DNA of 64,000 nt from Cyanobacteriota bacterium (GTDB taxonomy: Bacteria; Cyanobacteriota; Cyanobacteriia; Cyanobacteriales; Nostocaceae), in contig JBJOKS010000006.1 in the NCBI GenBank assembly GCA_046045965.1, positions 64,001 through 128,000 on the forward strand. The letters run 5' to 3'. A model generated the notes under the pieces. It did not search any database. It saw only the letters and a program-made list of their open reading frames with translations, and was not told the origin of the DNA. This document shows, piece after piece, positions 18,546 through 41,858 of this stretch. The translations under genes were made by a program, and so were the position numbers. Position 1 is the first letter of the stretch. Every line of letters starts with the position of its first letter.

Positions 18546-19754
18546 ATGACTACCAACATCCTGGATAACATTGACCTGCGGACATTAGGTGAACTCCTGC
18601 AACAAGCCCGTAAAAAATGCGGCATGACTCAAGCGGATGCAGCCAAGATTATTGATGCTGCACGCACCACTATGATCGCTATTGAAAAAGGGGAACGTCG
18701 CCTCAAAGCCAATGAACTGATTAAACTTGCTCGTGCTTACGGACGTTCTGTAAGTGAATTTGTGCGATCGCGCCCTGTCGTACAACCTTTTGAAGTGCAG
18801 TTTCGTGCAGTTTATCAACGCAGTCAGGAACAACAAGCAGAAATTGAACCATTTATCTCCCAATTAGAGGAATTATGTCAGAATTACCTAGAACTTGAGA
18901 AAATCATGGATGCGCCAATAGCGCGAAACTATCCTCTTGAGTATCAAGTAACAGATATGCCCATTAAATCTGCTGCGGAAAGTATAGCAGTAGCAGAACG
19001 TCAACGCTTAGGTTTAGGTGATGCGCCTATTTCCCAACTGCGAGACATCCTAGAACAAGATGTGGGTTTACGGATCTTCTATTTGCAGATGCCGCAAAAA
19101 TACTCAGAAGTGTATAGCTATAACGAAGAAGTTGGTGGTTGTATGGCTATTAATGCCAATCATCCAGAAGAACGTCGGCGCTGGTCAATGGCGCATGGAT
19201 ATCTGCACTTTTTAGCGCATCGGCAAAAACCAGAGTTTCATTTTGAGGGACAATATCAACGATTTCCTGAAAGTGAACAACTAGCGGAAACTTTCCCCAA
19301 ATATTTCTTGATGCCTACCAGTGGATTGCTGAAGCGGTTTAATGATATGTACCGTACACACGGCAAATTCACACCGACTAATTTATTTACCCTAGCGCAT
19401 TACTATGGTGTGTCCGTAGAAGCCCTAGTTTATCGGTTAGAAGAAATGGAACTTCTACCTTCAGGAACTTGGGAGAAATTGCGAGATAGAGGTTTAAAAG
19501 TCAGAAAGGTACAGGAAGAACTAGGTTTAGAACAAATCCCGCAAAGGGTTGATATGATGCCACTGCACTATCAACACTTAGCAATTGAAGCTCTTGATCA
19601 AGGTTTAATTACAGAAGGGCGTTTTGCTGAATTTCTCCATGTTGACCGCTTAGAAGCCCGTCGCATAGCTGAAGCTTTACGGGAATATTCAAGCGGAATG
19701 ATGGAAAAAGATACGGATTTTGATTTGCGTCAAATCCAAACTGCTGGGAAGTGA
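18546..19754 (+). CDS. XRE HTH fused to ImmA/IrrE-like domain with a degenerate HExxH (HGYLH)
   Basis: LQQARKKCGMTQADAA..IEKGER HTH, RRRWSMAHGYLH, YFLMP and LAHYYGVS. Confidence 0.9.
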   Translation: MTTNILDNIDLRTLGELLQQARKKCGMTQADAAKIIDAARTTMIAIEKGERRLKANELIKLARAYGRSVSEFVRSRPVVQPFEVQFRAVYQRSQEQQAEIEPFISQLEELCQNYLELEKIMDAPIARNYPLEYQVTDMPIKSAAESIAVAERQRLGLGDAPISQLRDILEQDVGLRIFYLQMPQKYSEVYSYNEEVGGCMAINANHPEERRRWSMAHGYLHFLAHRQKPEFHFEGQYQRFPESEQLAETFPKYFLMPTSGLLKRFNDMYRTHGKFTPTNLFTLAHYYGVSVEALVYRLEEMELLPSGTWEKLRDRGLKVRKVQEELGLEQIPQRVDMMPLHYQHLAIEALDQGLITEGRFAEFLHVDRLEARRIAEALREYSSGMMEKDTDFDLRQIQTAGK

Positions 19755-19782
19755 GGAGTATATATAATATATCTAAATTATT

Positions 19783-20328
19783 ATGGAAATTACTCACTCC
19801 CATATTATTCTTGATGCTTGTTGTGTTCTCAATCTTTGTGCATCTGGTCAGTTTTTAGCAATTTTGAAATCTCTTCCTGCGGAAATTGTCGTGACTACAG
19901 TTGTCCAAGAACGGGAATTAAACACACTCCAAAAACTTCAAAAAGAAGAAAATGATGCCGTCTTAGAGTTTGAGGAAGCGATTCAAACAGGGTTATTAAA
20001 AGTTGTAGATTTTGAATCAGAAGAGGAGGAGGAATCTTTTGTTAACTATGCTGCTGTTCTTGATGATGGTGAGTCTGCAACTTTGGCAATAGCAGTTCAT
20101 AGAAAATGGGCGATCGCCACCGACGACAAAAAAGCAATCAAATTTATTCAACAAACTGCACCACACATTCAGGTTTTATCCACTCCAGAAATCATCAAAC
20201 ATTGGTCAGACGTAGAAAATATTAATTCCTCAACACTTCGTAATATACTTCAGGCAATTCAGTTAAAAGCAAAATATTCACCACCTAACAATCATCCTCT
20301 CAAAAATTGGTGGATAAATGCCTTTTAA
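19783..20328 (+). CDS. PIN-like domain protein
   Basis: IILDACCVLNL, LDDGESATLAIA and IATDDKKA acidic motifs. Confidence 0.82.
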   Translation: MEITHSHIILDACCVLNLCASGQFLAILKSLPAEIVVTTVVQERELNTLQKLQKEENDAVLEFEEAIQTGLLKVVDFESEEEEESFVNYAAVLDDGESATLAIAVHRKWAIATDDKKAIKFIQQTAPHIQVLSTPEIIKHWSDVENINSSTLRNILQAIQLKAKYSPPNNHPLKNWWINAF

Positions 20329-27593: not shown

Positions 27594-30500
27594 TTACCTG
27601 GATTCAATGGTTTCCACTCGGAAGCGTTCCACAGAGGCGATCAAGTCGCGGGACACTCCCACCAAGTGTTGTAAGGCTCCGGAAACTCGCTGGGCTTCTT
27701 GGGAAGTTTCTTGGGCTGTGAGTTCCACTGATTGCATCACCTGAGCTACAGCGAGAGAAGTTTCCGTCTGTTCTACGGTATCAGTGGTAATTGAGCGTAC
27801 CAGACCGTCGATATGATCGGCTACCTGGATGATGTTTTCTAGCGATCGCTTGGCTTCTTCTGCTAGTTTTGTGCCTTTAATTACCTGTTGTGTACCTTCT
27901 TCCATCGCCGTCATGACAGAGCTAGTTTCGCTCTGAATTTGCATGACGATTTGTTCAATTTCTTTCAAAGATTTGGCAGATTTGTCTGCTAACTGCCGCA
28001 CTTCATCTGCTACAATCGCAAATCCCCTGCCAGCTTCTCCGGCTCTTGCTGCCTCAATACTGGCGTTGAGTGCCAAGAGGTTGGTTCTAGAAGCAATCTG
28101 AGATACCAAGGCGACGATAGAGTTAATTTCTTGCGAAGATTCCGCCAACCGTTTCACTTTTCTGGTTGTTTCTGCCACTGTTTCCCGAATTTCCAAAATC
28201 CCCGCTACAGTATTTTCTACTGCTTCTCCTCCTTTGACTGCGATCACGCTGGCATCACGGGCTACAGTTTCTGCTTCTTTGGCTGCCACTGCTACCCGTT
28301 TAATAGATTCCGTCATCACTTGTACGGAATTGAGGGTGACAGCCAACTCTTCTGCTTGACGCAAAGCATCACCTGATAAGGCTCTAGCGAAGGTTTCTGA
28401 GTTGGTTGAACCTTTGGTAACATCCCTGGCCGCCACTTTCACCTGTTGGACAATATCCCGCAGGTTTTGAATTGTCAGGTTAAAGGCATCAGCTACTGCT
28501 CCCAGTACATCGGCTGTCACTTCAGCTTGCACTGTTAAATCTCCTCTAGCGGCTCCTTCCACATCGTCTAAGAGGCGAATCACTTGGCGTTGCAGGTTTT
28601 CTTTGGCTTCTTCTTGTTCTACTGCTTTCCGCTGGGCTTCATTAGTAGTCATGAAAATGACCCGTGCCATATCGTTAAAGCTGGTAGATAAGTACCCTAA
28701 TTCATCCTCTGAGTAAACTGTTGCCTGAACATTGAGATTTCCTTCTCGGACAGCATCAAACTGAGCTTGCAAATCTTTGGTAGTACGTCGAATTTGCTTG
28801 AGTGTCAGATTACCCATAAAGCCAGCTGTCATTCCCCCGGCCAGTCCTGCGGCTAAAGCCATTGCCCAACCTGTATTCTGCACTGACTTTCGTTGTGAGG
28901 CTGGAGAAAATGAAGTGGCTCCAAAACTGATTAAAGAGGCTACCACGACTGAGGTTACACCCACTGTAACCCCTATATACCATTGCTTTTTCTCTAGAGA
29001 GGCATTTTCAAAGAATCCAAATAAGCCCTGCTCAACACTGACGTTGGGTTCTAGTTTAGAAACTTCTGGTTGGGTAAATACAGGAACTGCTTCTTGTGCG
29101 CCTGTAATTGTGAATAATTCCTCATCACGGTCAACATCGTCATTATTAATGGAGAAATCTTCGTTAAAGCTATTGCTACCAGTAGCTGCCTTTTCCCTGG
29201 TTTCAGATAATAACCCCATATCGCTGTAGCTAGAATCTTCAGCTAGGTCAAAGCTGGGAATACTACCTAAATCATCAAATTCGTCAAAATCGCCTAAAAA
29301 CTCGATATTGTTGGGAGAATTTTCTTCCCGTGCTACAGGATTGGCATCTTCATCAGTGGTAAAGCTTTCTGAGCCAAAGGCGGACTCAAATGCCTCTAAA
29401 TCGAAACTATCATCATCATCATCAAAGTCATTGGAGTTATATCTGGTATCTAAATGCACCTGCTGTCCATTAGTAGCAAAATTGTTGTTCAAAGATGATG
29501 AAATTTGGGTACTTGAGTCAGGATCTGTTGCAGGTTCTAACTTCTCTGGAATTTGTTCTCTCCAATTATGATCTGGGCTACTCAAATATGTATTTACACT
29601 GTTGTCTCTTAAATCATTTCTATTTAAATCATGATTGATTTCCTGTTCAGCAATGACTGAATTAATATCTTCTTGGCTATGATTGGCAACGCTCAAATTC
29701 TCCAGCTTCATATCTTCAAAGTCTGGTGCATATTCTTCCATCATTAATTCAGGCGCACTTTGCCAGTTATTGTCAGCGGAAAGATTAATTTCTCCCAAAT
29801 ATAAATTAATCTGCTCCTCACTGGTTGCTGAAGCTTCCTCTTCTGAATTTACATCGAGGTCAGCAAAATGACTATTTTCTCCTGATTCACCAATATTTTC
29901 TGATGAAATGCCTTTTTGCCAGAAAGAAGGTAACTCTAAATCTCCTAGTGCTTGAGCATCATCGTTAGTTGCTTCTAACTCTAAGAATGGTTGATCTAAA
30001 GTTAGTGGTAACTCTAAATCTCCTAGTGCTTGAGCATCATCGTCAGTTGCTTCTAACTCTGAGAATGGTTGATCTAAAGTTAGTGGTAACTCTAAATCTC
30101 CTAGTGCTTGAGCATCATTGTTAGTTGCTTCTAACTCTGAGAATGGTTGATCTAAAGCGAAAGGATCATGACCAAAATCTATTGAGTGATCCTGTAGTTG
30201 ATCCAATTCAACCTGATCAAATTCAACACTATTGAAACTATCTAAATCACTTGCAAACGGATTACTCAAAGATATATCTTCAATAGCATCTTTAGATGGT
30301 TCATATTCACCAAAGGCTTTCAGATCAAAGTTGGTGTTGTCCAAGTCTCTACTAACTCCTAAATCTAGTAAATCTGCTGCATCAGTTACCAGACCATTAG
30401 ACACTTCTACAGAATTTATAGGTGAATGAGGCTCGACTGAGAATTGATCCTCACCAAAAGCCTCAAAGTATTGTTTAATACTTTCAAGATAGTTGGTAGC

Positions 30501-30740
30501 AGAGCCTAGAATTTCTTGATCATCTGTTAAATGGAACACGTTCTCATATTCTGCTTTGGCGATCTCGAATTGCTGTAAAACATAGTAGATGTGACCCCGC
30601 AACAGATGAGAATTGGGGTCATTTGGTAAGTTATGCACCGCTTGGTCTATTAAAGTAGCGGCGGCTTCATAATCCCCTTCTGTATAGGCTGTTAGTGCCT
30701 GCTGATATTTTGAATTGCGATCATCTATATTTACTACCAT
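27594..30740 (-). CDS. hmpD: Methyl-accepting chemotaxis protein with N-terminal TPR, HmpD/PilJ
   Basis: [34 protein letters not shown] signalling hairpin, HAMP, two TM helices and an N-terminal TPR. Confidence 0.92.
29929..30157 (-). repeat. Three tandem 78-bp (26-aa) repeats inside hmpD
   Basis: LDQPF(S/L)[18 protein letters not shown](LT) three times. On the plus strand the units start at 29929, 30007 and 30085. Confidence 0.95.
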
Positions 30741-30756
30741 TTCCTCCCTCCCAACT

Positions 30757-31311
30757 TCAACCTGCCCACCTAGCACTCCGCAAAATTGCTGTTTGATCAA
30801 TCAGCCTTAGATACTTATTATTTTCAGGATCTAACCATTCTCCCCGGAGAAAAGGAGCCATCGTATCTGGTACATTATTTGGTGGCATTAGATACTGTAC
30901 ATCAAGCCAACCCATACCACAGATTTGGTCTACTCCTAAGCCTACTATGATGTCTTGATCTTCAATAGCAATGACTGGTATCTCAGACCTATCGGTGTTT
31001 AATGGTGTTACCTCCCCCAGAAATTGACCCAAATCTGCTACCCAAATTAATCGACCTCGTAAATTTAGAGTACCCAAAAGAAGTGGAGAAGCATTAGGAA
31101 TCGGAGTAATACGATCAGGACTTAGTTCTATGACTTCCCTAATACCAGTTGCTGGTAATGCAAACTCCTGATGGGAAGGAATATAAAATCTTAAATGTAA
31201 CTCGCCTTTTGGGTCTATGGCTTGTGCCACGCTATCAGGACTTTCTATTTGTAATTCTGGGCGAAATTGGTCTTGACCACTGCCACTTAAAAAGTCTGGT
31301 TTACTGACCAT
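30757..31311 (-). CDS. hmpC: CheW-like protein HmpC/PilI
   Basis: [20 protein letters not shown], and its position in the operon. Confidence 0.9.
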
Positions 31312-35508: not shown

Positions 35509-36501
35509 TCATTCATCAGTCCTCTGCAATATACAGATCCACTCACCTTGTACTATGGCTGTCACACCTCCGGGAAAAGGATCGGTTTGAGAACGATTTG
35601 GTGCTGTAATTAAAGCTGTGATTTTTTCAATGTGTTCAAAGTTGGGAGCATCAGGTAATATTTGCTGTAATACCTGACGCATCACCCGACGTTGCAATGC
35701 TAGGGGCTGTTTTTGCAAAAGATGACGATTGATACGTAAATCACCTTTCTCACCCTTTGCTGAGGCTTCTAGGCGCAATTGATGGGCATTTTGTTCTAGG
35801 TATTCTACCTCAGCTTGTAAAAGTTCTGCTGTTTGTGCTAAGTGGGATTCTACTTGGGGGTTGAAATTTTGTTGGAGATATGGTAAGAGTTGGTTACGAA
35901 TGCGATTTCGTGCGTATTGTAAATTCTGATTTGTGGAATCTTCCCAAATTGGCAAGTTAAAATCTTGACAAAATTTTCCTGTTTGAGCGCGGGTCAGTTC
36001 TAAAAGTGGACGCACTAGGGTAATGTTTTCAGTAAGTGGACGTTGCCAAGTTAAAGCTTGTAAACCATCAGCACCAGTACCCCGCATGAGGTTGTAGAGT
36101 AAAGTTTCTGCGCGATCGCTTGCTGTGTGTCCCGTAATGATATATTGATAATTATAAGTTTGGGCAATATTCGTTAAAACCTGATAACGCCAACTTCTAG
36201 CTGTAGCTTCACTATTAACAGGATTTGTAGCTGTTTCTAAATAAAAAGGTAGATTCCAAGTTTGTGCTAAATGTTGTACATGATCAGCATTAGCTTGGGA
36301 GTCAGCACGCCAACGATGATCACAATGAGCTACAGCTAAACTCCATTCCCATTTAGGTTGTAAATCTAATAATAATTTAATTAAACACAAAGAATCTTGT
36401 CCACCAGAAACTGCGACTAATAGCTTTTGCTTAGGTGCAAATAAACCACGGGCGCGGATGGTACGATGTATTTGGGCGTGGAGAGGAGTCCATAAGCTCA
36501 T
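35509..36501 (-). CDS. tilS: tRNA(Ile)-lysidine synthetase
   Basis: AVSGGQDS PP-loop, EATAR, TGHTASDRAET and RNRIR. Confidence 0.95.
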   Translation of the reverse strand: MSLWTPLHAQIHRTIRARGLFAPKQKLLVAVSGGQDSLCLIKLLLDLQPKWEWSLAVAHCDHRWRADSQANADHVQHLAQTWNLPFYLETATNPVNSEATARSWRYQVLTNIAQTYNYQYIITGHTASDRAETLLYNLMRGTGADGLQALTWQRPLTENITLVRPLLELTRAQTGKFCQDFNLPIWEDSTNQNLQYARNRIRNQLLPYLQQNFNPQVESHLAQTAELLQAEVEYLEQNAHQLRLEASAKGEKGDLRINRHLLQKQPLALQRRVMRQVLQQILPDAPNFEHIEKITALITAPNRSQTDPFPGGVTAIVQGEWICILQRTDE

Positions 36502-36648
36502 TTTTCTGTTGCGGCTAGTGCATGATTTTACTGGACAGGGATAGATTTAAGGTTAATAAAATATAGGTTTATTTTGATTTTCCTTGTTCCCATCCTATGT
36601 ATAGTAATGAATTACAGAAAGTCTCATGTAATCAAGCTTGAGAATAAG

Positions 36649-37953
36649 TTATTTATAACGTCTTTTAATATATTTTTTAATTAAAGGATTCAGAACCCAA
36701 AGTATTTTATCTCCTGCTAATATATCCGCTTTCTCAATCAAACGAACTTGCCATAAATGATCTATAGCTTGACTAATTTCTCCCTTAGAGGGGAAAAATT
36801 GAGCTATTTGAGAAATTAATTGTGGCTCTGTAGCTATGGCTAATTTTTGCATAATTTGAATTTCTAGGTTTGACAAATAGGAAGAAAAGAGTTTATCCAG
36901 CAATCCGCTCATCACATTAGGTATAAAAATTGTTCCTTCCAGAAATTCATAAATTTGTCTATTATGAATATTTTTAATTGGTTCAGAAGCCAGAATTAAA
37001 GCTAATGGATGTCCCTTGTAGATTTCAATTAGTTGTTCTATTCCTGGATTTACAAGTCCCAACTCTGTCAATAGGGTTTTAGCATCTTGATATTCTAAAC
37101 CGCATAATGAAAGTTGCTGAATATTTCTTCTATGACCAAGTACATCTATTACTCCAGGTTTTTGTATACTGGTAAATACCAAGCAGCTTTGATGTTCTGA
37201 TTCCCCAATTCTTTTTAAGAATCTCTCATATTGATATTTTTGTTCATTGTCTAATGATTCACCCTTTGCCATCACACCTTCCCATTGATCAAATATCAAC
37301 AAACAACGATTATCTGTTAAGAAACTAATCAGGTTTGTAGTTCTCCGATCTATAGCTGTTTCTGAACTGCTCGATGAAAAAGACAATTCAACATCAGTTA
37401 AAATTTCTGCCAAGGAAGGGGAATATTCAAGACTCTTCCAAATAACATAATCAAAATCATTTTTAACCTTTTCAACTAACTCCCTCACAAGCGCAGATTT
37501 ACCAATCCCATTTATCCCCAAAACACCTACCACACGACAGCTTTCAGTAACTATCCATTTTTGTAAATCAGACAGTTCTTGTTCTCGTCCATAAAAATCA
37601 CTTACATCTGGTGCTTCCAGCAAATTTCTATGTGAATTTATCTGTGAGATAGGCTTAGTTTTTCCTTCCCTCACAGGTTCTTTCTTTTCTTTTAAAAGTT
37701 CGTCTAGCACTAATCGACAATTCTTTTTATTTACATTTGTTCCTATAATTCTACTCAGTTTCTTGAATAATTCGGGACCTTTAATAATCATGATAGTACC
37801 GGGAGCATAACTTGGAATTTTCATCTGTTTGTATGGTTCATCTTTGAGAGAATATTCCAGAATCGCTTCTTCACAAGGATCTAAATCTAAATCTATTCCT
37901 TTTTCCAGCTTTACCCAATCTTTAAATAGTTTGATTAACTCTTTCGCATCCAT
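36649..37953 (-). CDS. STAND NTPase: N-terminal HTH-like domain, NB-ARC and winged helix, with no WD40/TPR sensor
   Basis: APDVSDFYGREQEL, Walker A GINGIGKS, VIWKSL, Walker B CLLIFD, LVFTS and GHPLAL. Ends at LNPLIKKYI. Start set at MDAKE. Confidence 0.85.
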   Translation of the reverse strand: MDAKELIKLFKDWVKLEKGIDLDLDPCEEAILEYSLKDEPYKQMKIPSYAPGTIMIIKGPELFKKLSRIIGTNVNKKNCRLVLDELLKEKKEPVREGKTKPISQINSHRNLLEAPDVSDFYGREQELSDLQKWIVTESCRVVGVLGINGIGKSALVRELVEKVKNDFDYVIWKSLEYSPSLAEILTDVELSFSSSSSETAIDRRTTNLISFLTDNRCLLIFDQWEGVMAKGESLDNEQKYQYERFLKRIGESEHQSCLVFTSIQKPGVIDVLGHRRNIQQLSLCGLEYQDAKTLLTELGLVNPGIEQLIEIYKGHPLALILASEPIKNIHNRQIYEFLEGTIFIPNVMSGLLDKLFSSYLSNLEIQIMQKLAIATEPQLISQIAQFFPSKGEISQAIDHLWQVRLIEKADILAGDKILWVLNPLIKKYIKRRYK

Positions 37954-38003
37954 AGTCCAGTTTTCTCTCAAGCTCGTATTATGGATTGTATCTTAATTTG
38001 CAC

Positions 38004-38088
38004 TAACTTTATTAACTTTATTAGTTTTATTAGGCTTAAATACTGATAATTAGTTAGTAATGACGATTACATATAATGATGAGATACT
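38004..38088 (+). promoter_or_regulatory. Three 9-bp tandem repeats (TAACTTTAT x2, TAGTTTTAT) plus TTAGTAATGAC-N19-ATACT
   Basis: Visible directly; the same arrangement recurs at 39903-39994. Confidence 0.65.
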
Positions 38089-38120
38089 TTTTTGTGTAAG
38101 GACAAAAAAAAGAGGTTTAT

Positions 38121-38312
38121 ATGGCTAGTCAATACTTATTCAGGGTTAATATTGCAGATCAAATGGTTTCCCTATCAGAATTTGTGAACGTCAACAGACA
38201 AGATAATAATTGGCAGTTCATGTCAGTACAATCACCGGAATTAAGAAATATTTTATTTACACAGAGTTATGAGGGAGGGGATGATGATGATCCAATTGTT
38301 CCACCTAACTAA
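38121..38312 (+). CDS. 63-aa peptide with an acidic GGDDDDPIVPPN tail
   Basis: AGAGG RBS just upstream of the ATG, and the shared upstream repeat architecture. No family recognised. Confidence 0.65.
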   Translation: MASQYLFRVNIADQMVSLSEFVNVNRQDNNWQFMSVQSPELRNILFTQSYEGGDDDDPIVPPN

Positions 38313-38433
38313 TTGATCAAATACGGCTTTTCCAAAATTCTCAAGAAAGCAAGATCATGGTTTGTGCAGATGAAAGTTGCTCTTATAAATCTTTATTTTT
38401 TTGAATAGTAAATGCACTTTCATCTGATCTAAT

Positions 38434-39486
38434 TCAGTGAGATGAAGAATTAAGAACTCTAACTGCTTCAAGCTTCCAAACTTCTAATTCTGGTAATTTC
38501 CAGCGAAATGTTTGCACCTGCTGATCATCGGAGTAAAATTCTAGAAAATGTCGCCATGATTCTCTTGCACCTTCCTGTTCTCCCTGTACAGCTTGTACTT
38601 GTGCTAATAAACAATAAGCTGGAGCGTAATTACTTTCTAATTCCAGACATATGCGTAAATGTTGTTTTGCTTCTTGATAACGATTTTGCTGAAAATATGC
38701 CCAACCAAGATTTTTGTGTAATGTAACTTTAACGGTGTTATCTTTTACCCTTGACAAAATTGGTTCAATGAGTTGCACCGCATCTACACTATTTCCTTGG
38801 AGAATGTGCAACCGAGCTAAGTTATTAACAGCAGCATCAGCAGCACGATTTTGATATCTAATAGCAATTTGATAGTGACGAAAAGCCCCAGCTAAATTGT
38901 CTAGCTTTTCATAAGCTGCTCCTAAATTATAGTGAGCAGAACCATAGTTGTGATTGAATTCAACTGCTAATTCTAGATAAGATACCGCAACTGTAAAATC
39001 ACTATTGAGGTAGCTTTTATGTCCTATCTGATTGAGGGTTTTAGAAATTTGTTTCTTTTCTTGCTCATTCAAATTAAGGCGAGTGATTAATTTCTTAAAA
39101 TCTTCTGATTTGTGGGGATTAACTGATAGTAAATGCAATATAGATTCGGTAATGTTTTCCTGATCTTCATCTGTCGTTTCTGCTAGTTCTTGTGTAAATC
39201 TAGATTGACGATCAGTTAATAGTTCTGGTTTGTATTTAGCAAACAGTGCTACTAAGTCTGAGCGTTTATAACGACGAGTATCAGAAGGTTCATTACTCAG
39301 TCCAAATTCGTAACATATTCTTTCAATATATTTTCTGACAGATGGTTCTCCAATGTTCATAGCTTCAGCTATATCCACATCTGTCTCACCTGCTAGTATT
39401 TTTTGCAACACTTGTTTGCGTCTATCTGTCAGCTTGTTAAATATGTGTTCAAACTCTTGTTGATTCATCCTCGGTGTTACTTGCAT
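38434..39486 (-). CDS. LuxR/sigma4-like HTH plus TPR repeat protein
   Basis: LTDRRKQVLQKILAGETDVDIAEAMNI...VRKYIERI HTH. TPRs AHYNLGAAYEKL, AVNNLARL, LHKNLGWAYF and AYCLLAQV. Confidence 0.85.
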   Translation of the reverse strand: MQVTPRMNQQEFEHIFNKLTDRRKQVLQKILAGETDVDIAEAMNIGEPSVRKYIERICYEFGLSNEPSDTRRYKRSDLVALFAKYKPELLTDRQSRFTQELAETTDEDQENITESILHLLSVNPHKSEDFKKLITRLNLNEQEKKQISKTLNQIGHKSYLNSDFTVAVSYLELAVEFNHNYGSAHYNLGAAYEKLDNLAGAFRHYQIAIRYQNRAADAAVNNLARLHILQGNSVDAVQLIEPILSRVKDNTVKVTLHKNLGWAYFQQNRYQEAKQHLRICLELESNYAPAYCLLAQVQAVQGEQEGARESWRHFLEFYSDDQQVQTFRWKLPELEVWKLEAVRVLNSSSH

Positions 39487-39682
39487 TGGTTAAGTATTGA
39501 TCAGTAGTCACTTCACGAATGTGACTATTGTACAACAACTTATATCCATTATTGGTTTATTTTCTATCTATATTTTTATTTCTGCCCAAAACCTTGTGAC
39601 ACTTATTTCAGTCCAGGAATACCTCAATCTCTCCCATAGTCTTGACACTGGCAAGCAAATATGTCACATTTATAATTAAAGT

Positions 39683-39881
39683 TTATGTCACTCCAATATT
39701 TTTTATCCCGTGACATGGGTGTGGGAAGAAATGCTGCTAGAACGAAAGCTAGTCCGAACAAGGCAATCTCAATGTATTAATTAAAACTTAAGCGAAGTCA
39801 ATACTGAGGACATTTTCTGTCATATCTATATTTTAAAACTCACATAGTTAGCTAACCCTCTCAGATGAGAGAGGGTTTTTT
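39683..39881 (+). ncRNA. Candidate structured RNA of about 200 nt, or mRNA for a 31-aa peptide (39685-39780)
   Basis: TATAAT at 39671-39676. Stems ATGTCAC/GTGACAT, CTAG/CTAG and CTCA..GTATT/AATACTGAG. Terminator AACCCTCTC/GAGAGGGTT plus T run. Confidence 0.4.
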
Positions 39882-39902
39882 ATGACATCTAAAAGTAGCA
39901 CT

Positions 39903-39994
39903 TAACTTTATTAAGTTTATTAACTTTATTAAGTTTATTAATTAACTTATTATAAAAAATTAGTGATGACAAAAACGTAGTTTTCCTAAATACT
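39903..39994 (+). promoter_or_regulatory. Four 9-bp tandem repeats TAA(C/G)TTTAT plus TTAGTGATGAC-N19-ATACT
   Basis: Same motif order and the same 19-nt spacing as 38004-38088. Confidence 0.65.
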
Positions 39995-40026
39995 AGAGAC
40001 ATAAAGAAAGTAATTCCTATCCTACC

Positions 40027-40272
40027 ATGAATTCGCAAAAATATCATTCGTTTTCTATAGTCATGCTTGTTGAGCTTTATCCAGCATTAGGAATTTTATT
40101 AGGATTGACTTTAGTGTTACTTTTACAAACTTCATCAGACAAAGTATGTATTCAATTTCCATCAGCACCAGATCGGGGTATTCCTGAAAGAACCAATGGT
40201 GCTGGAACACGAGTAACAATTCAAAATCCTATAAATTTGGCAAATATTTTCAGACTCAGAAATTCTTTATAA
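40027..40272 (+). CDS. 81-aa peptide with a hydrophobic signal/TM segment and a PDRGIPERTNGAGTR motif
   Basis: ALGILLGLTLVLLL hydrophobic core. The Pro/Gly/Arg motif resembles the N-terminal motif of cyanobacterial DUF928 proteins (recalled, not searched). Confidence 0.55.
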   Translation: MNSQKYHSFSIVMLVELYPALGILLGLTLVLLLQTSSDKVCIQFPSAPDRGIPERTNGAGTRVTIQNPINLANIFRLRNSL

Positions 40273-40379
40273 TAAAATAGACTTAAACCCTCGAAATCAA
40301 ACTATAAAAAACGAAATTTTTTTAGGCTTGAATGTATTTGAATGCAGGGATATAGACTTATCTTGACTACCAGCCTAAG

Positions 40380-40512
40380 CTAAGTAGGTAGGCGTTAAAA
40401 ATTGTCGTTATGACGAGGCAGGAGGCAGGAGGCAGCTATGCTGGAGGGAAGAGGTTTTTAGGAATTTTAATTTTTTTTACATACCTCTGTTTTTTCATGC
40501 CGACTTACTTAG
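40380..40512. mobile_element. MITE-like element of about 130 bp
   Basis: Imperfect 22-bp TIRs CTAAGTAGGTAGGCGTTAAAAA and TTTTTCATGCCGACTTACTTAG (18/22 match), with internal GAGGCAG repeats. Confidence 0.7.
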
Positions 40513-40653
40513 TTTATCAATTTACTATTAAGCCATTTCATAGGATTATCAACTTATTTAAATTATGCTTTTTGCGGCTGTGTTTCTTAGGGTTTTTGTG
40601 CAGAACCTTGATCATTCTCCCCCCTCTCAACAGAAAGGGGGAAAAAGATGCAA

Positions 40654-41697
40654 TTAGAAAAACCAACCGTAAGAATGTAAACCCTTACCCAAAAGATTCA
40701 CACCCAAATAACAGATCCAAACTACAACAAAACCACCAGCGGCTAAAATTGCAGGTTTTCTACCTTGCCAACCGCGAGTAATTCTAGAATGTAGATAGGC
40801 TGCAAAAACCAACCAAGTAATTAAAGCCCAAGTTTCCTTTGGGTCCCAACTCCAATAAGAACCCCAAGCTTCATTAGCCCAAACACCACCGGCAATAATA
40901 CCAATTGTTAGTAAAGGAAAACCCAAACCAATCACGCGATAGCTGATATTATCTAAGGTTTCTGCCAGGGTGAGACGTTGAGGAGAAAGAATTTCCGCAG
41001 TTGAAATAGGCGCAGTTTTGACTACATCTAAAACAGCAGTACCATTACCATTGTTATTCGTTTCTAACCGGGAAAAACCATTGTTTTCAGATACAGAAGT
41101 TAGGGGTTCAGTTACTAACTCTCCAGCTTTGAGTAGTTTGTAACCATTGCTGCGATAACCACCATTACCAACAGAACTACCTTGTAATTGAATGTTTTGA
41201 CCACGTGTCACAATTAAAAAAGCGATCGCCAACAAAGAACCCACCATCAAAGCCGAATAACTCAACATCATCACACTGACGTGCATCATCAACCAATTCG
41301 ACTTTAAAGCCGGAACCAAAGGTTCAGAAACCTGCATTGCTGAAGGTAAGGTTAAAGTAGCAAAAGCTGTAATTCCCATCGCTACAGGAGCAGTTACAAC
41401 CCCCACCAAACGGCTACGACTTGTATTTTCAGCAAGTAGATGGACAGCAGTAATACCCCAAGTCAAGAAAAATAGAGACTCATAGAGATTACTGAGAGGA
41501 AAATAACCTGCTTCAATCCATCTTGCGCCTAATAAAGCAGCAATACACAAATTTGCGATCGCCATTCCAGCCGTCCCCAAAGCCGCAGTCACCGATAAAC
41601 TCGGAAAAGCCGCCCCCACCCAATACACCAGCATAGTGCAGAACAAAACAGCAAAGGAGGCATTATCCAGCCAGTTCTGGAGTACAACCAGATTCAT
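40654..41697 (-). CDS. ccsA: Cytochrome c biogenesis protein CcsA (annotated CcsB in many cyanobacteria)
   Basis: [15 protein letters not shown], the WWD domain [18 protein letters not shown], and GLHSYG. Confidence 0.95.
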
Positions 41698-41858
41698 AAA
41701 CACTTCTCCCTAGTGAATCAGTTATTCAGTTATTCAGTTAACCAGGTCAACATAATTAAATATAAAACGCTCAGGAGATAGATCCCCGACTTCTCAAAGA
41801 AGTTAGGTATCTGGCCGACTATCCTGATCCTATCTACTTTTGGTCTTCTGACTCCTGA

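Follow-up and report, generated by a model that had tools for sequence, protein, structure and literature searches.

The interval between tilS and ccsA in the window (the whole stretch of 64,000 nucleotides analysed here, from a cyanobacterium of the Nostocaceae) carries an islet in which a small open reading frame (ORF) of 63 amino acids (aa) lies beside genes for a helix-turn-helix (HTH) protein with tetratricopeptide repeats (TPR) and for a STAND NTPase of the NB-ARC type. From sequence comparison and complex modelling we consider it rather likely that the tail of the small protein, DDDPIVPPN, is the ligand of the neighbouring HTH-TPR protein and controls transcription through it; this judgement extends to co-inheritance, groove binding and HTH switching only. 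The two appear to form a conserved peptide-TPR regulator pair of cyanobacteria, apparently undescribed, whose local form is reduced. A sequence-only reading of the same DNA had proposed a peptide-responsive switch with two small peptides and a putative RNA. The peptide-receptor idea holds up for the 63-aa ORF and the HTH-TPR gene through co-occurrence, selection on the tail and complex prediction, but not for the second peptide, an 81-aa ORF, or for the RNA.

Co-occurrence was surveyed in 389 Nostocaceae genomes, which are related to one another, so that the counts are descriptive and not independent. The HTH-TPR gene is present in 43 of them. Counted by hand, 32 of these have the peptide next to the receptor and 6 have it at another place in the genome; in 4 it was not found, and in 1 a contig end cuts the locus. 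Adjacent peptides lie tail-to-tail with the HTH-TPR gene, at a spacing of 121 nt in the window; one genome counted here (G175) has a divergent tail and an insertion sequence in between. When the genomes were searched with a DNA pattern, the true motif turned up in 26: 25 have the receptor, and the other, G111 (85% complete), is the only one among the 346 that lack it. Of the 38 receptor genomes in which the peptide is known to occur, the pattern recovered 25, so that it misses about a third. In G109 (L219-L220), about 17 kb of insertion sequences and a block that reads as CRISPR-Cas-like part the peptide from the receptor.

Outside the Nostocaceae, the same TPR domain is found fused behind HTH-NB-ARC in proteins of about 650 aa. 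A motif ORF accompanies 9 of the 13 fused genes with enough downstream DNA, whereas 15 related NB-ARC loci that lack this TPR domain have none. Some of the peptides that follow fused genes have signal-like segments. For metagenomes the motif rule was fixed before the sequences were fetched; 66 loci gave 44 distinct TPR ORFs, 36 of them with at least 600 nt downstream. Among the strong TPR matches the motif ORF stood on the expected strand and side in 11 of 25, with 0/25 on the same strand and 0/25 upstream, and the weak matches gave 0/11; two further divergent peptides were spotted by eye among the strong matches. In one genome (G375; L190 2950-3200) a single deletion takes the receptor together with the peptide beyond its first eight codons. 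The deletion joins these eight codons to the leader sequence of a gene for an outer-membrane beta-barrel protein, so that this gene now comes under the A-box promoter described below. No relative of the TPR domain was found in viral contigs. The comparisons show that the peptide and the TPR domain have been passed on as a pair in several families of cyanobacteria. The sequence-only reading had named as contrary outcomes regulators without adjacent small ORFs and small ORFs lacking conservation; for the 63-aa ORF and the HTH-TPR gene this pattern was not what we found. Its view that each regulator is divergent from a small unit stands for the 63-aa ORF and the STAND gene, but the receptor is paired with the peptide tail-to-tail instead.

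By alignment, the 63-aa ORF belongs to a real, previously unannotated gene family with a conserved C-terminal tail. In translated DNA, ORFs on the opposite strand behind HTH-TPR homologues end in (D/E)nP(I/T)VPP(N/S)-stop, and 40 of them were aligned. Family members range from 26 to 69 aa and differ with the neighbouring gene: next to NB-ARC genes they have 54-69 aa, next to AAA_35 genes 26-32 aa and next to DUF1822/CHAT genes 33-37 aa. The local copy has a variable body and an acidic run, DDDD, ahead of PIVPPN. An AAGAGG ribosome site lies upstream of the peptide ORFs, conserved and at a fixed distance. Several features of the codons point to selection on the tail at the protein level: all four proline codons are in use across the tails, the frequency of the majority base across the motif falls from 0.94 and 0.91 at codon positions 1 and 2 to 0.65 at position 3 (37 ORFs), and among 18 long forms 485 synonymous and 329 non-synonymous differences were counted in the tail, against 458 and 4806 in the body, although these statistics are partly circular, the ORFs having been chosen by amino-acid pattern. 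In the 5.3-Mb genome the motif pattern has one background match besides the peptide gene itself. Pfam, NCBIfam and the ESM Atlas returned nothing usable for the 63-aa peptide.

A related-looking ending, DEDYPIVHPN-stop, was rejected as a form of the motif. In L050, L051, L058 and L060, the four copies fetched, it closes a conserved frame of 17 codons without a start codon. It accounted for 7 of 34 listed matches, and dropping all 7 removed 4 of 30 genomes (G047, G048, G105 and G109). One genome, G112, holds extra peptide copies (L122 17448-17681 and L123 5435-5668), of which one neighbours a response regulator and a CHASE2/DUF928/CHAT cluster and the other is divergent from an HTH-NACHT gene.

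The receptor candidate is a protein of 350 aa with a GerE-type HTH and TPR_1/2/12 matches in Pfam, and its structure model has a pLDDT of 83.7. Within the groove of the TPR domain, N187, N222 and R225 are invariant, and together with Y159 and Y186 they are invariant or nearly so in 74 homologues. We predicted the complex of TPR residues 108-350 with peptide residues 33-63 from our own alignments. The prediction, a check that the sequence-only reading had suggested, passed its controls with a score of 0.82 against 0.02 for the best control; in the calibration, which is rough since our own alignments were used, 116 of 157 solved complexes reached this mark, as did 2 of 215 mismatched pairs. Contact agreement between runs was at least 73%, with a partner pLDDT of at least 51. 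Confident contacts are confined to the tail (peptide residues 54-55 and 57-63) and the groove, including Y159, Y186, N187, N222 and R225, so the tail is predicted to lie in the TPR groove on an asparagine ladder. The fold itself is a generic superhelix, with PilF (Z 18.5) ranking above PlcR-PapR (Z 15.9), MalT domain III (Z 15.9) and Rap (Z 15.0). Because its own HTH matches the head domains of the fused HTH-NB-ARC-TPR proteins, the HTH-TPR protein looks like a fused STAND that lost its ATPase. At L045 (6804-6914 and 7900-8106, minus strand) two tandem small ORFs ending GKTVPPNNHP.DAS come after a gene that joins a kinase to a TPR domain of this family; the pocket residues of the fusion differ, and fusion and ORFs are a possible co-varying pair.

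The order and strands of the ORFs between tilS and ccsA agree with the ORF listing, as the sequence-only reading had given them for its four ORFs. The features are as follows.

35509-36501: tilS, left flank.
36649-37953, minus strand: NB-ARC ORF, 434 aa from ATG 37953 (the ORF tool starts at TTG 37971), assigned by Pfam, head domain and Walker motifs.
37995-38038, plus strand: A-box, a tandem array of 9-bp TTTATTAAC-like units within the divergent NB-ARC/peptide promoter.
38121-38312, plus strand: ORF for a precursor of 63 aa whose body varies and whose tail, GGDDDDPIVPPN-stop, is conserved; predicted TPR ligand.
38434-39486, minus strand: ORF with LuxR/GerE-type HTH and TPR, 350 aa, assigned by Pfam, structure model and complex prediction.
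39507-39714, unstranded: candidate operators, six GTGAC/GTCAC half-sites that lie ahead of the HTH-TPR gene in its promoter region.
39715-39810, plus strand: orphan 5' leader, from alignment with relatives.
39854-39883, plus strand: hairpin resembling an intrinsic terminator.
39903-39972, plus strand: second A-box array with TTAGTGATGAC, upstream of the 81-aa ORF.
40027-40272, plus strand: 81-aa ORF, 5' fragment of a DUF928 gene, with signal segment and FP..DRG.P.RT..G.R motif.
40379-40520, unstranded: MITE-like dispersed repeat just beyond the islet, from blastn within the genome.
40654-41703: ccsA, right flank.

These elements suggest a mechanism in five steps. Peptide and TPR domain, co-inherited according to the comparison, would meet in a second step in which the tail sits in the TPR groove, as predicted. 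Third, binding would switch the LuxR-type HTH at the GTGAC/GTCAC boxes and thereby control the divergent genes, whose products in relatives are outer-membrane and secreted proteins. Such sites number 122 in 14,000 nt upstream of 40 HTH-TPR genes, against a mean of 13.8 and a maximum of 23 in 200 shuffles, an enrichment of about ninefold. Fourth, the sensor-less STAND would bind the tandem A-box and set peptide transcription, its input probably coming from a membrane periplasmic-binding protein and a Ser/Thr kinase encoded behind it in most relatives. In the fifth and least certain step the tail would be freed and pass from cell to cell, using Sec export in forms with a signal peptide and perhaps septal junctions in the Nostocaceae. 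We put release of the tail and its movement from cell to cell at a little under an even prospect.

The distant loci bear on this last step. The peptides at L138-L140 have a segment that resembles a signal peptide (hydropathy 3.0-3.2, ending in A-S-A or V-S-A), those at L148 and L154 reach 2.2-2.4, and L250, behind a TPR gene, combines a signal-like start with two copies of a DD/GDE-VVPPR motif. We infer an exported ancestor with leaderless Nostocaceae descendants.

Several points weigh against the tail as a receptor ligand and travelling signal, beyond the relatedness of the genomes and the circularity already mentioned. The local precursor has no hydrophobic signal (best 11-residue hydropathy 0.82, on hydropathy only), no processing peptidase is encoded in the islet, and translation of the peptide is presumed from its sequence. 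No peptide was found in the receptor genomes G047, G048, G311 and G005, three of which keep an intact pocket; no loss of pocket residues was seen in the peptide-less receptors checked, and pocket conservation exceeds that of the rest of the domain only slightly (0.73 versus 0.66). The complex prediction had only two unrelated-partner controls, and TPR grooves take many extended peptides. Among the strong metagenome matches, 14 of 25 fail the strict rule, or 12 after inspection by eye. Finally, the tail, nearly identical across genera, differs in this from strain-specific pheromones.

The same pair could also act inside the cell only, the small protein being an anti-regulator or co-activator of HTH-TPR that couples the two transcription factors in a cascade. 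This explanation shares the first four steps with the ligand reading and draws on the near-invariance of the tail, on Nostocaceae peptides that lack a clear signal peptide and shrink to about 26-33 aa, and on an islet with neither peptidase nor transporter. The hydrophobic segment ahead of the motif at the distant L138-L140 and L250, with an A-S-A or A-V-A end, speaks against it, as do the two motif copies of L250, which fit a processed and exported precursor, and on balance we find it possible but unlikely.

In the ligand reading the STAND protein stands upstream of the peptide. Its ORF matches Pfam NB-ARC (E 2e-9), has a GxxGxGKS Walker A and an LLIFD Walker B, begins at the same Met (ATG 37953) as its orthologues and ends without C-terminal repeats; by features and predicted structure its N-terminus fits the cyanobacterial HTH_VMAP-M9 family. 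The 9-bp A-box array occurs at 11 NB-ARC-type loci and a different array, CCTTACTTTT, at 13 AAA_35-type loci. Because the two are never found crosswise, array type is linked to STAND type and not to the TPR, and the A-box can be read as the binding site of the NB-ARC head, which would probably make the NB-ARC protein the upstream regulator of peptide transcription via the divergent promoter. Seventeen of the 21 full-length NB-ARC orthologues face the peptide, one faces the deletion stub of G375, and three (L201, L202 and L203), of the same clade and with an A-box, face genes of RTX-like glycine/aspartate repeats without a peptide. Behind the NB-ARC gene comes the membrane periplasmic-binding protein in 14 of the 21 and directly the Ser/Thr kinase in two. 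No orthologue of either was found in the local genome (best identities 30-44%), and by comparison with relatives the local copy is reduced: receptor, peptide and STAND are intact, whereas the site has lost the genes for sensor, kinase and targets. The proposal that the islet is self-contained fails accordingly on the relatives, which carry these additional genes.

It had also been proposed that the TPR protein serves as trans-acting sensor of the adjacent NB-ARC protein, a split STAND in which the peptide would trigger both. The fusion of the same TPR domain to HTH-NB-ARC in proteins that also have the peptide suits this idea, as does the local NB-ARC that ends without repeats. Yet the neighbour of the TPR gene is exchangeable (NB-ARC, AAA_35 or DUF1822/CHAT), the local NB-ARC is 26% identical to the fused one and no closer to it than other paralogues in the genome, and the HTH of the TPR protein matches the fused-protein heads as if the NB-ARC had been lost. 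Moreover, the NB-ARC clade does without TPR or peptide at 4 of the 21 orthologue loci, and 16 of the 21 continue into the periplasmic-binding protein or kinase. We regard a split STAND as improbable.

The right half of the islet is best described, from alignment with relatives, as debris of the output side. The leader at 39715-39810 precedes a gene for an outer-membrane beta-barrel or secreted protein in relatives (L190, for example; that of L121 matches Pfam OMP_b-brl), and no match to this gene was found in the local genome at E<=1e-10. A hairpin resembling that at 39854-39883 was found beside the end of ccsA in L046. The putative RNA had been proposed without coordinates, and we examined 39682-39883. 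Rfam gave two matches over 36400-40700, both with E>4, far below the gathering scores and outside the examined stretch, and the folding of that stretch did not go beyond that of shuffles (z = -1.26). Two of the six local half-sites make up its first hairpin. The RNA was therefore rejected, since a promoter with operator repeats, an orphan leader and a terminator account for the stretch. A frame of 21 codons begins at 39716 within it.

The 81-aa ORF, proposed as a second, signal-bearing peptide, does have a hydrophobic stretch, but it is not a conserved peptide: it was found in none of 26 related loci, and in alignment it matches the N-terminal part of three full-length DUF928 paralogues in the genome. 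It shares with these secreted proteins the signal segment and the first motif, in which it holds GAGTR, and differs from them in stopping before the PF06051 domain that they carry; it has no Pfam match, and no DUF928 homology was found further downstream. We thus rejected it as a signalling peptide in favour of a 5' fragment of a DUF928 gene. Because it stands behind the second A-box, it may be a relic target of the NB-ARC protein. An A-box of this second-array type also precedes the RTX-like repeat genes in L201-L203.

The pair resembles several known systems. RRNPP systems of the Firmicutes (PlcR-PapR, NprR-NprX, Rap-Phr, Rgg-SHP and AimR-AimP), as laid out in PMC10075063, combine an intracellular TPR receptor of 250-500 aa, an N-terminal HTH, an adjacent propeptide of 10-100 aa, a C-terminal ligand and Sec (or SHP-type) secretion, and by that description the local pair has four of the five features and lacks Sec secretion of the propeptide. 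The likeness to RRNPP that the sequence-only reading had raised thus stands for layout, with a propeptide of 63 aa, a TPR receptor of 350 aa and adjacent genes, but not for the Sec signal. PlcR-PapR aligns to the TPR model over 201 residues with a root-mean-square deviation (rmsd) of 5.0; it and Rap rank among generic TPR folds, and no RRNPP chain is among the 60 best profile matches of the TPR protein. RRNPP receptor heads are of the XRE type. The local system differs in its LuxR/GerE head, generic TPRs, missing Sec signal, STAND-fusion receptors, near-invariant tail and Gram-negative phylum.

The second likeness is to PatS of heterocyst-forming cyanobacteria, a small peptide whose C-terminal form binds a cytoplasmic transcription factor and moves through septal junctions along filaments (PMC7476756). 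PatS/PatX-HetR and the present pair share a small gene, a C-terminal active peptide (here predicted) and a cytoplasmic transcription factor as receptor; the differences are an acidic-proline tail, a TPR receptor next door, a patchy accessory distribution and the lack of RGSGR/RGTGR, the motif RG(S/T)GR being absent from all 40 aligned peptides. In its working the peptide-TPR pair is analogous to RRNPP or PatS, but nothing indicates that it belongs to either. MalT/AfsR STAND factors share HTH, STAND and TPR sensor with the fused relatives (MalT domain III: rmsd 3.8 over 208 residues), and differ in that the ligand here is predicted to be a self-encoded peptide and the Nostocaceae receptor has no ATPase. 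We tentatively propose a pheromone system of the cyanobacteria's own, evolved apart from RRNPP, in which an ancestral, Sec-exported D-P-I-V-P-P peptide was read by a STAND-TPR protein, and the leaderless, PatS-like form of the heterocyst-forming Nostocaceae is read by the ATPase-less HTH-TPR protein, controlling surface and secreted proteins by density or filament position. We hold this broader picture a shade less firmly than the movement of the tail itself.

A last likeness is to the actinobacterial VMAP ternary systems, in which, according to PMC7159879, a fast-diverging precursor with a conserved, sometimes acidic C-terminus is coupled to AP-ATPase (NB-ARC) and TPR. The local variable precursor with its conserved C-terminus and acidic run of at least four residues (DDDD) resembles the peptide-processing types of that kind (FxSxx-COOH, RxD and acidic). 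The islet is unlike them in being cyanobacterial, with HTH outputs and a PIVPP motif, and in lacking zincin peptidase, radical SAM and vWA-MoxR genes; no zincin or vWA-MoxR was found in the islet ORFs or, in a partial scan, among 37 neighbour proteins of relatives. The NF040586 FxSxx_TPR profile scores 31 bits on the NB-ARC protein against a cut-off of 300.

A further reading is defence against phage, or conflict more broadly, by a STAND/NLR-like system in which the peptide would serve as an alarm or an amplifier. It would fit a STAND NTPase, a patchy distribution and a variable AT-rich slot, and the same source (Kaur et al. 2020, PMC7159879) ties small acidic-tailed precursors and AP-ATPase-TPR to conflict systems. 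Phage-triggered immunity, which the sequence-only reading had offered as one role, finds no effector domain here, and the STAND protein has an HTH head only and no sensor. PADLOC gave weak P-loop and TPR matches only (E 8e-4 on the P-loop, 9e-5 and 3e-5), the Avs4 profile scored 14 bits against a cut-off of 1500, and the islet, without a vWA-MoxR or zincin gene, sits at a fixed housekeeping site with envelope and secretion genes as neighbours. We judge this explanation marginally more improbable than the split STAND. Least probable of all is that the family is real and the local copy a decaying, functionless relic, for although sensor, kinase and target genes are missing, DUF928 is truncated and the NB-ARC of the same-genus G001 is truncated too, the three core ORFs are undamaged, their motifs, pocket, ribosome site and boxes are in place, and they are 83-89% identical to their G002 orthologues without lesions.

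The tilS-ccsA interval is a variable slot; the islet genes are absent from it in four relatives examined, and close homologues occur in Anabaena, Sphaerospermopsis and Dolichospermum. The block is AT-rich, as had been noted, with a GC content of 33.4% in the lowest 5% of 4955 genome windows of the same size. The absence of the HIP1 octamer was likewise borne out from 36112 to 41222, but it was dropped as a sign of foreign DNA, since at 18% of same-size windows it is at chance level. The MITE-like repeat has 28 blastn matches in the genome, 21 of at least 100 nt, with copies also in relatives, and shows high depth in RNA-library contigs; a 123-aa ORF at 40410-40781 that overlaps it and for which no family was found was set aside. 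Among metatranscriptome contigs from two runs, X1 spans the TPR gene, part of NB-ARC and 39725-39979; neither small ORF is covered, so that neither transcription nor silence follows. At 39902-39955 a contig of X1 is shorter by 18 nt, or two repeats of the 9-bp array, and array copy number therefore varies between strains. Elsewhere in the window, 27594-30800 (minus strand) encodes a PilJ-like chemoreceptor with a TPR-like N-terminal part and three tandem acidic repeats of about 22 aa, and 646-1743 and 18546-20328 hold HTH-led ORFs that read as XRE/ImmA-type regulators, the second followed by a PIN-like ORF.

We found no description of the peptide-TPR pair in the open-access literature, where the literal motifs PIVPPN, DDDPIVPP and DDPTVPP return 0 papers; the supplementary tables of PMC7159879 or subscription papers could hold one. 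To our knowledge, the peptide signals established in cyanobacteria act on HetR and comprise PatS, PatX and HetN. Most bacterial NLR-like STAND-TPR proteins, as far as we know, have no known ligand, and the fused relatives offer a candidate self-made ligand for such a protein. The pair can be tested directly, since it offers a named ligand (a synthetic peptide of 9-12 residues), a receptor that is soluble, a predicted set of pocket residues, and candidates for both operators and target genes, in a system whose carriers include the bloom-forming genera Dolichospermum and Aphanizomenon.

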